A stretch of 43,413 nucleotides of DNA from a virus (IMGVR_UViG_3300009078_000001); one strand, 5' to 3'. Shown: positions 19,895 to 43,413, counted from the first letter of the stretch. The notes: generated from the sequence alone by a model not told the origin. Program-made: numbers and translations.

Positions 19895-20020
19895 ATGAAG
19901 ATTTATATACATAAATGCCTCCGATGTAATCACAAATGGGCGAGTAAAAACCACCACCCTTTACGTTGCGCTAAGTGCAAAACGCCCTATTGGAACAAGG
20001 AACGCAAATGCCAGAAGTAG
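19895..20020 (+). CDS. Small zinc-ribbon protein (41 aa, not in track)
   Basis: My translation is MKIYIHKCLRCNHKWASKNHHPLRCAKCKTPYWNKERKCQK*. It is a clear paralogue of the 47-aa ORF at 37085..37228. Confidence 0.6.
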   Translation: MKIYIHKCLRCNHKWASKNHHPLRCAKCKTPYWNKERKCQK

Positions 20021-33886: not shown

Positions 33887-33989
33887 TCCTTGCTGGCTAC
33901 GGAATCGAACCGTAGAAACATAGAGCTTGCAAACACTATGTGACAGGACTCGCCTTTGTCGTAGCATTCCATGTCTACTACCAGCAAGG
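33887..33989 (-). tRNA. tRNA-like gene with canonical acceptor, D and T arms but a non-canonical, oversized anticodon/variable region
   Basis: Minus strand reads TTGCTGG-TA-GTAG-ACATGGAATG-CTAC-G-[GACAAAGGCGAGTCCTGTC][ACATAGTGTTTGCAAGCTCTATGT]-TTC-TACGG-TTCGATT-CCGTA-G-CCAGCAA. The T-loop GGTTCGATTCC and the D-loop GG are present. About 99 nt in total. Confidence 0.6.
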
Positions 33990-34109: not shown

Positions 34110-34748
34110 TCATTTCCCTTTTATCTCCCTCTTTAATCTGTATATTTCCAGGCAGTTTAAAAATACCTTTAAGTGTAAAGACAAGTCCTCCAGCACGCGC
34201 TCCTCGAAGCCCTCCTTGTCATCCCGGCCGATGCGGAGGATCCGGCAGGTCTTAATTTCGTGGCCGTTCTGCTCTAGGAGTAATTTATAAGCGGCCAGCT
34301 GGAAAAACATCTCGTCATAGATTCCACTCCCGGTCTTGAAATCTACCAGAGCCAGCTCGCCATCCACTTTTCCGTATAAGTCAATGGTCCCGCCGAAGCC
34401 TAACCCGCTGACAAAGGGCGTCTCGACAAGTATGGGCTCGACTGTATGCGCCTTTTCCCAGTCCCAGTATTTAATTAAGGAATTCTCAGCCTCATTTAGC
34501 TGGTTGGGAGAATAGTCTGCGGTCTCCGGTGTTTCCTTGCGGAAGTGGCAGAGGATTAGATAATGGGCTAAAGTTCCTATTTCCGCTTTTTCGTCTCTGT
34601 AACGAGCCGAATCTATCCCTTGAAGCCCCAGCCTGTTGGCCCAGGCTATGAGCGCCGGTTTCGCCAGCACATCATTGAGTATTGTAGTAACCCCGGGTAT
34701 TTTTGTGCCGTCTGAGAGTTTATAGATTATGTGCGCGGCGGTTTTCAA
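34110..34748 (-). CDS. PD-(D/E)XK exonuclease (RecB/Cas4-like fold)
   Basis: GTLAHYLI..., GGTIDLYGKVDGELALVDFKTG, and QLAAYKLL (D...D/E-x-K plus QxxxY). Confidence 0.75.
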   Translation of the reverse strand: MKTAAHIIYKLSDGTKIPGVTTILNDVLAKPALIAWANRLGLQGIDSARYRDEKAEIGTLAHYLILCHFRKETPETADYSPNQLNEAENSLIKYWDWEKAHTVEPILVETPFVSGLGFGGTIDLYGKVDGELALVDFKTGSGIYDEMFFQLAAYKLLLEQNGHEIKTCRILRIGRDDKEGFEERVLEDLSLHLKVFLNCLEIYRLKREIKGK

Positions 34749-35927: not shown

Positions 35928-36154
35928 TCTCCGCTTTCCTTTTGTAACGCTTCTTTCTTCTGGTTTACCATCTCAAGGTGTTTTGCAAAGATATAATCAA
36001 TCACCTTTTCGCCAGTTTTTACGGCGGCATAGGCTAATGAACAATTCATATTTGCTAGTTTTTGTATATCTAGTTCGATATGACACTTTAAAAGCCATGC
36101 TTCTTTAAAGGCTCGATATTGTTCCTTATCGAATGCAGCCCCAAACTTACTCAT
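35924..36154 (-). CDS. Hypothetical protein
   Basis: 76-aa ORF just downstream of the integrase. Confidence 0.6.
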   Translation of the reverse strand: MSKFGAAFDKEQYRAFKEAWLLKCHIELDIQKLANMNCSLAYAAVKTGEKVIDYIFAKHLEMVNQKKEALQKESGE

Positions 36155-36156
36155 AT

Positions 36157-37047
36157 CTAAATCTCCAACCTATTCACCGCATCGCTTAAATGCTTCGGTA
36201 CCAGGTCAATATAAATTGCCGTTGTGGAAATATCCTCATGGCCTAACAACTCCTGAACATCCTTTAAGCTAGTTCCCTTTTCAATTAACTGGGTAGCGAA
36301 AAAGTGCCTAAAAGAGTGTGTATGGAAGCCATCTACATGGGCGAGGCGAGCATAGCGCCTGACTATGTTTGAGAGGCGCTTGGGCTGTAGGTCGATGATG
36401 CGCTCGGAGGAGGTGAGCGCTGCAGTAAAATCATGGAGGCATTCGTAAAGTGAAGCTGCTATTGGTATTGCCCTGTCTTTATCTCCCTTGCCGTGCACCA
36501 GAATCATGCGGGCGGAAAAGTTTATATCCCGCATCCGTAAGTTTAAAAGCTCGCCTCGCCTCATGCCGGTATAGGCAAGGAGCAGGACAATCAAATGGTC
36601 TCTTGTTCTCTTGTGGTACTTGTCTTTAACCGTATCCACGGCCTCCAGGATAGCCCGCACCTGCTCTATAGGGTGATAAATGGGCAGGTGCTTCCTTTTC
36701 TTGAACTTGGCCTGGAAAACTATCTCGTGGTCGGCCAGGAAGGGTCTTAATGCGTGGTAGTAGCATCTTTGAGTTGACGAGGTAAATCCCTTACCTTTCA
36801 GGACACCTAAAAACTCATGGGCAGTCTCTGATGAAACTGTCTTTAATCCAAGCCACTGCACGTACGTGTCAATACAGCGTATGTATTTGCGTACCGTAGA
36901 AAGTGAAAGATCAGTGGCCTTAAGGGCTTCTTTGTAAGAAAGCAGGGCTAGCTGCGCCTCTGCCTGCCTTATTGCATCCGCCACTACATAACTCTTGTTT
37001 GCTATTATAACCTCTGCCACTGACATTCCCTCTTTTTTATGTTTCAT
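36157..37047 (-). CDS. int: Tyrosine recombinase / phage integrase (XerC/D-like)
   Basis: Catalytic set: TGMRRGEL (R), GKGDKDR (K), HSFRHFF (HxxR), LGHEDISTT (H) and AIYIDL (Y). Confidence 0.9.
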   Translation of the reverse strand: MKHKKEGMSVAEVIIANKSYVVADAIRQAEAQLALLSYKEALKATDLSLSTVRKYIRCIDTYVQWLGLKTVSSETAHEFLGVLKGKGFTSSTQRCYYHALRPFLADHEIVFQAKFKKRKHLPIYHPIEQVRAILEAVDTVKDKYHKRTRDHLIVLLLAYTGMRRGELLNLRMRDINFSARMILVHGKGDKDRAIPIAASLYECLHDFTAALTSSERIIDLQPKRLSNIVRRYARLAHVDGFHTHSFRHFFATQLIEKGTSLKDVQELLGHEDISTTAIYIDLVPKHLSDAVNRLEI

Positions 37048-37061
37048 AAAATGTTATAATG

Positions 37062-37114
37062 GGTACAGAACTCGGCTTACAGGTCTACTTGGCCGCCTTC
37101 TGTACCTTATTTTT
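37062..37114 (+). other. Hairpin plus T-run carrying an RNase P RNA P4-like 15-mer. It is a candidate attP core or a small antisense RNA.
   Basis: GGTACAGAA (37062-70) pairs with TTCTGTACC (37098-106) and is followed by TTATTTTT. ACAGAACTCGGCTTA lies at 37065-79. TGTTATAAT (an extended -10) lies at 37052-60. Confidence 0.4.
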
Positions 37115-37228
37115 CCTTGGCTTATTCCAGTATGGTGATTTACACCGGCCGCAATGTTTAGGCTCGGGTTCTTTGCGGGAAGCGAACTGTGAATTGCATC
37201 TTTGGCAGGTATAAATCTTCAATGTCAT
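37085..37228 (-). CDS. Small zinc-ribbon protein upstream of int (47 aa, not in track)
   Basis: My translation is MTLKIYTCQRCNSQFASRKEPEPKHCGRCKSPYWNKPRKNKVQKAAK*. It is a paralogue of 19895..20020. Confidence 0.6.
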   Translation of the reverse strand: MTLKIYTCQRCNSQFASRKEPEPKHCGRCKSPYWNKPRKNKVQKAAK

Positions 37229-37279
37229 GCTTTAAATATATACCTTTAGTTAAGCAATGTCAAGTAGTTAAGGGGCTTT

Positions 37280-37308
37280 TTGACAAAAAAAATTGCAAGT
37301 ATTATTCT
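37280..37308 (+). promoter_or_regulatory. Sigma70-like promoter for the lipoprotein moron
   Basis: TTGACA (37280-85), a 17-nt spacer, then TATTCT (37303-08). A GGTGGGGGTGGAG SD precedes the ATG at 37326. Confidence 0.5.
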
Positions 37309-37325
37309 GTAGGTGGGGGTGGAGA

Positions 37326-37661
37326 ATGAAAATCATCTTAATTGTGGTGGCCTTGCTACTTATGGTTTCCTGCGCGCCGGCTGAGAATACAGTTCAGCTT
37401 ACCGCTACGGTCAAATATAACAGCAACACGTTGTATCTAACCAACGATGACAATTTCAGCTGGTCAGATGTGAGGCTATATCTAAACGGGTTTGACTACC
37501 AGTTGGGCGTAGACAAAATTGGAGCCGGGGAAACCTTTAACACGCCTATTAAGGAATTTGTGACAGGGAAGGGAGAGCGGTTTAACCCGGTATCAACAAA
37601 GATAATGACTGTGTATATTGTTTCCACAGAGGGCGCGTGTGGCTTTGAATACGGTCAGTGA
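37326..37661 (+). CDS. Secreted lipoprotein (moron; possible superinfection-exclusion function)
   Basis: MKIILIVVALLLMVSCAPAEN is a signal peptide with a lipobox-like MVSC. It is on the plus strand, convergent with the neighbouring gene and overlapping its stop. Confidence 0.7.
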   Translation: MKIILIVVALLLMVSCAPAENTVQLTATVKYNSNTLYLTNDDNFSWSDVRLYLNGFDYQLGVDKIGAGETFNTPIKEFVTGKGERFNPVSTKIMTVYIVSTEGACGFEYGQ

Positions 37662-38173
37662 GCCTTTCTAACGGTCCTTAGATATTTTGCGCCCTCGTAC
37701 ATGTCCTTGAAGGCTAGAACCTTGTCCTCATTTGGAAACAGTATCACAACCGGGTTGGCCACATGGTTGCCGAAAAAGCCGTTCTGCTGGGCGAAGTCAT
37801 CATAAACCGCGTAAGTTCCGGGACGAACCGCTACACATTCTTTCCCGTCGTACTGGTAGGATTCCACGCTTGATACGTGGTGATGCTCAATGGTTACTAT
37901 GCGAGCCCACGGAGCGTACATCCGTTGGTACTGTTTATTAGAGTGCGTCTGGTTAAAGCTGGAATTGAACTTGCCCTGATGGATTGAAAACTCAGAGTAT
38001 GTCTGGTTCCCAACCTGATAATTAATCCTCCCGCCGTGCTTTATATAACAGATTTTTAGTTGCTTGGCCTTTTCACCCAACCAATCCTCACCGGTCAATA
38101 AGGTATCCCAGTGGTTGTGATTGCCCGTTTTTAATACGAGTGTTTTTACAAACATCTTATCTAGGGTAAGCAC
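37655..38173 (-). CDS. Metallophosphoesterase-like protein, C-terminal part (in frame with 38186..38737 across a single TAA)
   Basis: LVLKTGNHNHWD (GNH(D/E)-type motif) and VTIEHHHV. Confidence 0.6.
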   Translation of the reverse strand: MLTLDKMFVKTLVLKTGNHNHWDTLLTGEDWLGEKAKQLKICYIKHGGRINYQVGNQTYSEFSIHQGKFNSSFNQTHSNKQYQRMYAPWARIVTIEHHHVSSVESYQYDGKECVAVRPGTYAVYDDFAQQNGFFGNHVANPVVILFPNEDKVLAFKDMYEGAKYLRTVRKAH

Positions 38174-42818: not shown

Positions 42819-43413
42819 CTATGCTGCGGCAATTAATCCGTGTGCTATCATGGCATCACGTAAAGCATCAATAACACCATCAGTTGTAGCGTCCCCTGAG
42901 TTGATTACATCATCACAGCGGGCATCCACTACCCTTGCGCCCACCACTTGAGTCCCTGCCACACTGAGAACCTTACCTGTGGGCAAATCCATACCAGTCC
43001 CGACTATGCTTAATACTTCTGCGGCTGCCGCACCTGCTATCTGTAGGTTAAAGTTTATCTCCACATCTTCAGAGCCATCCGTAGCATCGGTCAAAACAAA
43101 GTCTAAGGATGCACGTTCTTCTACTTGGCTTGCAGCGTTCCCTAAATAGACAGGAATCCCTAATCCAAAGTTTGCTGCTTCGTTATTAGTTCCTGCACCT
43201 GCCCGAAGATAGAACATATCGGTTACAGAATTAGTTGCTACTCCTGTATCATCACGGCCTATTCGTAAGTAAGGGTCTGCTGCACCTATAACTGCTGCTA
43301 CTGATACGATAGTCACGCCATTGTCCCTTGCGGTTATAAGAAAGAGGCTGTTGTCTACATTTAATGCAGAAAAGGAATTACCATTACCTATATAAAAGTT
43401 ACTAAACTGGGCT
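42819..43413 (-). CDS. Tail fibre / receptor-binding protein, C-terminal part (continuation of 1..1334 across the junction)
   Basis: Same frame as the ORF that runs off base 1. The C-terminus is ...GARVVDARCDDVINSGDATTDGVIDALRDAMIAHGLIAAA*. Confidence 0.8.
   Translation of the reverse strand, partial: AQFSNFYIGNGNSFSALNVDNSLFLITARDNGVTIVSVAAVIGAADPYLRIGRDDTGVATNSVTDMFYLRAGAGTNNEAANFGLGIPVYLGNAASQVEERASLDFVLTDATDGSEDVEINFNLQIAGAAAAEVLSIVGTGMDLPTGKVLSVAGTQVVGARVVDARCDDVINSGDATTDGVIDALRDAMIAHGLIAAA
43291..43413. repeat. End overlap (second copy of bases 1-123)
   Basis: Identical to 1..123. Confidence 0.97.

Follow-up and report, generated by a model that had tools for sequence, protein, structure and literature searches.

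Directly beside the integrase gene of an uncultured virus (IMGVR_UViG_3300009078_000001) lies a short element combining a hairpin, a T-run and a likeness to RNase P RNA, which raises the question of whether it is an attachment site or encodes a small RNA. The DNA analyzed, in the following called the window, is the whole stretch of 43,413 nucleotides; the element occupies positions 37048-37114. An initial annotation, made from the sequence alone, had proposed either the core of a phage attachment site (attP) copied from rnpB, the gene for RNase P RNA, or a small antisense RNA. The sequence features underlying both proposals are present as described. An extended -10-like motif, TGTTATAAT, is found at 37052-37060; the stem arm GGTACAGAA at 37062-37070 pairs with TTCTGTACC at 37098-37106; the T-run TTATTTTT follows directly after the stem at 37107-37114, and the 15-mer ACAGAACTCGGCTTA resembling RNase P RNA is located at 37065-37079.

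The window carries an exact terminal repeat of 123 bp (positions 1-123, no strand assigned, identical to 43291-43413), by which the contig closes to a circle. It encodes a portal protein, a head protease, a major head protein, a large terminase, a tape measure protein, a DnaB-like helicase, and a DNA methyltransferase. The terminal repeat together with the phage structural genes indicates that the window is the complete genome of a tailed phage of about 43.3 kb, assembled as a circle and present in its free form; hence, an attachment site found there is attP and not the end of a prophage. The early region near the integrase gene additionally contains a 212-aa ORF (34110-34748, minus strand) with a PD-(D/E)XK nuclease domain (PF12705, 1.6e-07). 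A blastn search of INPHARED with window positions 36000-38000 returned no relative.

The gene next to the element (int, 36157-37047, minus strand) encodes a tyrosine integrase of 296 aa. Residues 128-283 match PF00589 with 114.8 bits at a cut-off of 27.1 (E = 4.7e-33), and an N-terminal SAM-like domain matches PF13495 (3.8e-06). The catalytic residues sought were R, HxxR, H/W, and the nucleophile Y, with motif positions read by eye; in a BLASTP alignment, the motifs GMRRGE, HSFRH, LGHED, and TTAIY are common to the integrases of the window and of contig L214, a relative described below. A separate arm-binding domain was not detected by the Pfam search of the integrase, and arm-type repeats were not evident in a repeat search around the core. 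By its size and its layout of a SAM-like plus a catalytic domain, the integrase is a small, Xer-like enzyme. The start codon had been placed at 37047, and the ATG of the 296-aa minus-strand ORF is indeed located there. The accompanying suggestion of an int gene without a Shine-Dalgarno sequence, possibly leaderless, is uncertain: codon 10 is a GTG that has GAGGG in front of it at a spacing of 7 nt, related integrases align from residue 14 or later only (that of L214 from residue 24), and the small ORF which precedes int on the same strand has a promoter-like site upstream of it.

The likeness to rnpB was analyzed beginning with the 15-mer. With at most one mismatch, ACAGAACYCGGCTTA occurs once in the window, as compared to 0.01 occurrences expected by chance. 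The RNase P consensus given in the initial annotation proved right, as the RF00010 consensus has ACAGAACCCGGCUUAcag close to its 3' end. The 15-mer does resemble the 3' strand of P4; the single substitution ascribed to it is none, since the T at 37072 is the native base in rnpB genes of many Dehalococcoidia. A scan with ACAGAACNCGGCTTACAGGTCTAC, in which each bacterial and archaeal species was represented by one genome, yielded 86 loci, mostly in metagenome-assembled genomes of Dehalococcoidia or other Chloroflexota. By ungapped extension, many of these are identical with the window over 30-32 nt beginning at 37065, a stretch to which the T at 37072 belongs. The longest perfect run comprises 34 nt (window 37061-37094 versus locus L076 of genome G001), followed by one of 33 nt (37064-37096 versus L064 of G002), and a 32-nt perfect run is shared with L080/L229. 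Eight of these loci were submitted to cmscan, and all eight are full-length class-A RNase P RNA genes (RF00010, 302-317 bits).

The shared stretch corresponds to about model positions 337-367 of the 367 positions of RF00010, comprising the 3' strand of P4, a short joiner, and the 3' strand of P1. The identity ends within 1-2 bases of the rnpB end, and on the other side 0-4 nt upstream of ACAGAAC. Whether any rnpB gene shares more than the 15-mer had been fixed beforehand as the point on which the rnpB reading would fall; the identity extends over 30-34 nt and stops at the RF00010 3' end, with the 33-34-nt runs of L076 and L064 ending at model positions 366-367 of 367. The copy of the Dehalococcoidia class-A rnpB 3' end, which we propose as attP identity block, thus occupies 37061-37097 on the plus strand, has 33-34 nt of identity, and starts 14 nt from the int ATG. 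Rfam at gathering score gave no match anywhere in the window, and RNase P models searched with E up to 10 gave none in 36800-37400; Rfam at E up to 10 returned noise for the region of the element (CRISPR-DR65-like with E = 0.99, P14, SNORD65). As the window contains no more than the terminal ~10% of the gene, i.e. a fragment and not an rnpB gene, the lack of a match to RF00010 is expected.

Integrases related to that of the window were collected by protein-seeded searches of IMG/VR and metagenome contigs. The best distinct relatives (L127, L128, L129, and L130, the latter on the same contig as L105 and L213) are 40-43% identical, and all four carry a core resembling the rnpB 3' end just upstream of int and on the opposite strand. 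Their core variants are TATAGGCCTGCTTGGC, TATAGGTCTACTTGACC, and TACAGGCCTGCTTGGCT, the last being present in both L129 and L130. A reciprocal scan of IMG/VR with the degenerate core CGGCTTAYAGGYCTRCTTGRC identified two contigs only, namely the L213 contig and the new contig L214, in which the ORF beside the core encodes a PF00589 integrase 51% identical to that of the window (E = 2e-96). The same arrangement of int and core is therefore present in all five closest integrase relatives (40-51% identity). The core was absent from about 95 more distant integrase loci, where three 11-nt pattern matches showed no further similarity. Among 401 Dehalococcoidia genomes, the best integrase match was 38% identical and none of the matches was located beside the P4 motif. 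Within the DNA fetched, no gene besides int was shared with the relatives, so the int-att module is the conserved unit.

One more distant member of the integrase group, L131 (positions 1-321; integrase 36% identical), has the 3' end of a tRNA with T-arm, acceptor stem and CCA upstream of the integrase start and on the opposite strand. This tRNA end occupies the same position as the rnpB-like core, which marks the position as the place where this integrase clade keeps its att site. Within this group of integrases, rnpB users thus appear to be neighbors of tRNA users.

The extent of the conserved core was determined from an alignment of 13 sequences (A1). In the row of the window, the invariant columns are T28-A35, A37-G39, C41, T42, C44-G47, and C49, which read TCGGCTTA.AGG.CT.CTTG.C and correspond to window positions 37072-37093. 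The minimal core TCGGCTTAYAGGYCTRCTTGRC (37072-37093, plus strand) is common to six int-linked copies and to rnpB genes. Relative to the 15-mer of the initial annotation, the conserved recombination core is shifted toward the 3' side. The degenerate core was found in 23 of the 401 genomes, distributed across Dehalococcoidia and always present once, and a reversed control pattern gave 0 matches; a 19-nt version of the core is present in 44 of 77 genomes of the G001 family.

Every int-linked core variant is the native rnpB end somewhere in one Dehalococcoidia family. The window type was found as native end in G001, G442, and G455; the type of L129/L130 is native to many genomes, that of L128 to G257, and that of L127 to G418, G428, G436, G462, and G463. 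According to the RF00010 structure line, a copied P1 3' strand must pair with the P1 5' strand of the host, and matching to the host is consequently what an att site that rebuilds the gene would need. The need of the phage core to fit the host P1 5' strand amounts to a simple host-range rule and explains the host-matched variants in the relatives.

The copy of the rnpB end provides a sequence-based host assignment for an uncultured phage, namely to Dehalococcoidia (Chloroflexota) and probably to the family of G001 and G018. To our knowledge, few phages have a sequence-based link to hosts among Dehalococcoidia, a class which is hard to culture. The closest relatives of the portal protein among the 401 Dehalococcoidia genomes were 35-42% identical; none was found in the 77 genomes of the G001 family, and a close prophage was not found among these 478 Dehalococcoidia genomes in all.

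The integrated state was analyzed with the integrase relatives. The rnpB gene of G018 (L215/L235) and contig L129 are 92% identical over 73 nt, through the core and about 50 nt further to the end of the L129 contig; the G018 rnpB region and L213 are 80% identical over 130 nt. The genes that follow rnpB in G018 code for an S41 peptidase, PdxT, two glutamine synthetases (GlnA), and ammonium transporters (Amt). Since this flank consists of chromosomal housekeeping genes, G018 represents the empty attB site, and L129 and L213 represent attR junctions. The match of L129 with G018 was also considered as attL of a prophage residing in G018, which is ruled out by the same housekeeping DNA downstream of rnpB. 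In both L129 and L213 the order is integrase, displaced rnpB 3' fragment, host flank, i.e. the attR arrangement predicted from the layout of the window. Related integrases are hence found at rnpB and not elsewhere, as these int-core-host flank junctions match G018. A tRNA gene matching 33887-33989 had been named as an alternative target; this alternative falls, since ARAGORN detects neither a tRNA nor a tmRNA gene in the whole window, 33887-33989 included. Contigs L127, L129, and L213 end 66-123 nt beyond the core; these ends may be assembly breaks where attP, attR, and attB configurations coexist in the sample.

To judge from their sequence layout, two genomes of the family (G430 and G431) carry islands in the rnpB site. 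In G430 (L237:140-1359, C48), the rnpB 3' end recurs as a direct repeat, perfect over 40 nt, on both sides of an islet of 1.18 kb, which is located between rnpB and the same S41 peptidase gene as in G018 and contains a weak YoeB-like toxin ORF and a 149-aa ORF, without an integrase. The G431 island is spread over two contigs (L239:1-2982 and L238:1-4816; C104 and C32) with attL and attR on separate contigs: one contig contains rnpB followed by genes for a glycyl-radical enzyme and its activase, the other contains genes for an aldehyde ferredoxin oxidoreductase, an SDR protein, and a TetR protein followed by the core and the S41 peptidase gene. An integrase was not visible in the parts of the G431 island that were fetched.

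Two further genomes with more than one rnpB copy were inspected. A Dehalococcoidia single-cell genome (AH-958-J08, L077:1-2745) carries a tandem of full-length rnpB genes (RF00010, 310 and 293 bits) separated by 2.4 kb, with an AbiEi/AbiEii type IV toxin-antitoxin pair between them. As both copies are full-length genes and not just 3' ends, they were rejected as an attL/attR pair; this duplication of the whole gene could be an island with its own rnpB or an assembly artefact. G468 was rejected as an insertion because its two contigs (L240 and L241; C113 and C134) are near-identical and carry near-identical rnpB genes and flanks; most likely, these are redundant contigs or strain variants in the bin.

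The run of 30-34 nt identical with rnpB and the related integrases found at rnpB bear out the attachment site proposal: with high confidence, 37061-37097 can be regarded as the attP core of a temperate Dehalococcoidia phage which copies the rnpB 3' end. We infer that the window phage itself would integrate at rnpB. An alternative holds the fragment to be a relic in a phage which has lost integration at this site or altogether; it would be either host DNA acquired when excision was imprecise or the remnant of an earlier att site. This is improbable in view of an integrase ORF that is intact and has its catalytic motifs, and of a genome that is a complete circle with a full gene set; furthermore, the fragment is located exactly where all relatives keep their core, has 0 mismatches to living rnpB genes over 33-34 nt, and ends together with the gene, which a gene-rebuilding site is expected to do. 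A relic would agree with the searches of IMG/VR, the metagenome collection, and the Dehalococcoidia genomes, in which no lysogen of the window phage itself was found. A right-arm 24-mer, designed to catch attL of the window phage, gave 0 matches in the metagenome collection, the 24-mer core of the phage is absent from IMG/VR, and in none of the Dehalococcoidia genomes scanned were two copies of the window-type core seen. It would also agree with the block reaching further 5' (GGGTACAGAACT) than the core common to the relatives, as this part could be host sequence that was picked up.

The hairpin was analyzed by folding and by repeat search. A stretch of 78 nt including the hairpin folds with -23.3 kcal/mol (z = -3.5), and none of 200 shuffled sequences was as stable. 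The inverted repeat around the core is imperfect and extends to arms of 15 nt (37062-37076 and 37092-37106), which are 87% complementary and 15 nt apart; with the T-run, it occupies 37062-37114 on the plus strand. Measured against terminator criteria, the element has a stable stem with TTATTTTT directly after it and a loop region of 15-27 nt, and it was not called by a consensus scan, because a loop of more than 8 nt escapes a simple terminator scan. The 3' arm of the inverted repeat is not conserved in the relatives (13-sequence alignment). That the two arms might be core-type binding sites of the integrase was also considered and dismissed, in view of the 15 nt between them and of the lack of conservation of the 3' arm in the relatives.

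Upstream of int, an ORF of 47 aa with a CxxC...CxxC zinc-ribbon pattern (37085-37228, minus strand) was identified from the ORF list and its translation. Its last codons overlap the att block, and it ends 37 nt before the int ATG. Pfam returned sub-threshold zinc-finger matches only. A paralogue 51% identical (E = 6e-13) is encoded at 19895-20020 on the plus strand and sits near the portal/terminase region.

Promoters were searched for using the sigma-70 criterion of -35 and -10 hexamers separated by 16-18 nt. On the plus strand, no promoter was called at 37052-37060, where TATAAT has no -35 partner, and the only plus-strand calls near the element are located at 37280-37308 and 37492-37519. 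On the minus strand, a promoter-like site, TTGACA-17 nt-TATATT (37235-37263), has 11 of 12 consensus matches; it carries little weight, since it is a consensus match only and promoter-like sites in this region are no more frequent than in shuffled sequences. Between 37235 and 37308, two promoter-like sites are arranged back-to-back. The minus-strand site faces the zinc-ribbon ORF and int, and the plus-strand site (TTGACA-17-TATTCT) points to an ORF of 111 aa with its start at 37328 and an N-terminus resembling a lipoprotein signal (…LLLMVSC).

The second initial proposal, a plus-strand RNA of about 45 nt made up of -10 motif, hairpin, and T-run, would lie at the head of int and run antisense to the zinc-ribbon ORF at the 3' end of the latter, and the likeness to RNase P RNA would be incidental to its function. 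Its promoter would be TGTTATAAT, an extended -10-like motif 5-10 nt before the hairpin, and its end the stable hairpin with the T-run; nevertheless, we regard such an RNA as very improbable, because the -10 motif is not paired with a -35 hexamer and is not part of any promoter called on this strand. Its TTATAA is palindromic and fits an AT-rich leader of int equally well, and hairpin and T-run are not kept in L214 or L128, as read by eye in these sequences. Moreover, an antisense RNA leaves unexplained the perfect 33-34-nt identity with the rnpB end and the occurrence of five related integrases, each with a different, host-matched rnpB end at the same place. The proposal is without support, and the hairpin with its T-run is better understood as the end of a rebuilt rnpB unit. 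In phage lambda, regulation of int depends on the att configuration (sib retroregulation). It is most improbable that the inverted repeat is, on this parallel, chiefly a regulatory hairpin (processing or attenuation) in a minus-strand transcript of zinc-ribbon ORF and int and not a recombination site: the promoter-like site at 37263-37235 would indeed send transcripts through the hairpin into int, but the rnpB identity and the attR junctions of the relatives would be unaccounted for, the 3' arm is unconserved in relatives, and regulation is compatible with attP as a secondary role and not as a replacement.

For an attP core copied from rnpB, the following course of integration can be proposed. 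The integrase (36157-37047, minus strand) would recombine the attP block with the identical chromosomal block at the rnpB end. Strand exchange would most likely take place inside TCGGCTTACAGGTCTACTTGGC (37072-37093, 22 nt), where the exact crossover is presumed to lie. In the resulting lysogen, rnpB would be intact and full-length, without any difference from the native gene within the mature RNA. At attL, the last bases of rnpB and the region downstream, comprising hairpin and T-run (37098-37114), would be supplied by the phage; at the other prophage end, attR would contain the displaced original rnpB 3' fragment beside the int start. The essential ribozyme of the lysogen would hence be a chimera with the 3' strands of P4 and P1 derived from the phage.

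Beyond the end of the gene, the first 9 phage nucleotides (37098-37106) would pair back onto GGTACAGAA in the lysogen, followed by the T-run. Hairpin and T-run may thereby act as a replacement terminator for the rebuilt rnpB, which would also shield the plus-strand gene starting at 37328. They are read as a terminator because nothing upstream on the plus strand of the free phage requires one, and because the rnpB transcript of a lysogen arrives from that side. The minus-strand promoter-like site (37263-37235) could serve as promoter of the zinc-ribbon ORF and, across attP, of int; provided that both are co-transcribed, integration would presumably cut int off from this site. Tentatively, we combine these steps into a more general model, which is possible but rather doubtful as a whole: a clade of small Xer-like integrases of Dehalococcoidia phages and islands would be dedicated to the rnpB 3' end, and in the case of the window, integration would restore rnpB with a 3' end and a terminator made by the phage and at the same time unplug int from its promoter, so that int expression would track the circular versus the integrated state.

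The integrase resembles Xer-like or 'simple' tyrosine recombinases such as XerC/D, which act on dif, in being short (296 aa) and in having SAM-like core-binding and catalytic domains only; arm-type repeats around the window core were likewise not detected. In contrast to dif, the site in the window is the copy of an RNA gene end beside a phage gene, and its core has only weak dyad symmetry. The likeness to XerC/D is drawn from the domain composition.

Tyrosine-integrase phages, islands, and integrative plasmids use the 3' part of tRNA and tmRNA genes (Williams 2002, Nucleic Acids Res 30:866, as cited in PMC12540744; Islander, PMC4383910). The proposed integration of the window phage resembles these systems in that attP adjoins int, copies the 3' end of a gene for a stable structured RNA, and would rebuild this gene upon insertion, and in that the far end of the element is recognizable by a displaced 3' fragment and islands accumulate at the site (G430, G431). 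Furthermore, the more distant integrase L131 employs the 3' end of a tRNA at the corresponding position. It differs in that the target is rnpB, the gene of the RNase P ribozyme, and in that the copied segment consists of the P4 and P1 3' strands, giving a core without the stem-loop symmetry of a tRNA. This target matters for programs that search for prophages and islands, most of which check only tRNA and tmRNA genes.

Within Dehalococcoidia, genomic islands of Dehalococcoides specific for ssrA, the tmRNA gene, have been described, e.g. the islands carrying the vinyl-chloride reductase genes vcrABC (PMC3146451). The class of the host, the site-specific integration into a single-copy gene for a stable RNA, and the reuse of the site are alike in both cases (PMC3146451). 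They differ in the target (ssrA versus rnpB) and in the element (reductive-dehalogenase islands versus a complete tailed phage).

A target other than tRNA or tmRNA is known from the Enterococcus phage phiEf11, which integrates into ffs, the gene of 4.5S RNA, at a site confirmed by lysogenization (PMC12540744, 2025). In that study, ffs is presented as a new target class beyond the known tRNA/tmRNA and csRNA genes, and an updated Phage_Finder is described which screens RNase P models among the candidate targets, with no such case reported in the passages searched (PMC12540744). Both phages are temperate and have, near int, an attP core (27 nt in phiEf11) identical to part of a stable-RNA gene other than tRNA; they differ in the RNA concerned (SRP RNA versus RNase P RNA), in the phylum of the host, and in the attachment site being confirmed by lysogenization in phiEf11 versus deduced from sequence in the window phage. 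A full-text literature search found no paper naming rnpB as attachment site, which does not prove absence. The mechanism is a familiar one, namely integration of the tRNA/tmRNA type, and the target rnpB is apparently undescribed; the catalytic RNA of RNase P would thus join tRNA, tmRNA, csRNA, and ffs on the short list of stable-RNA insertion targets.
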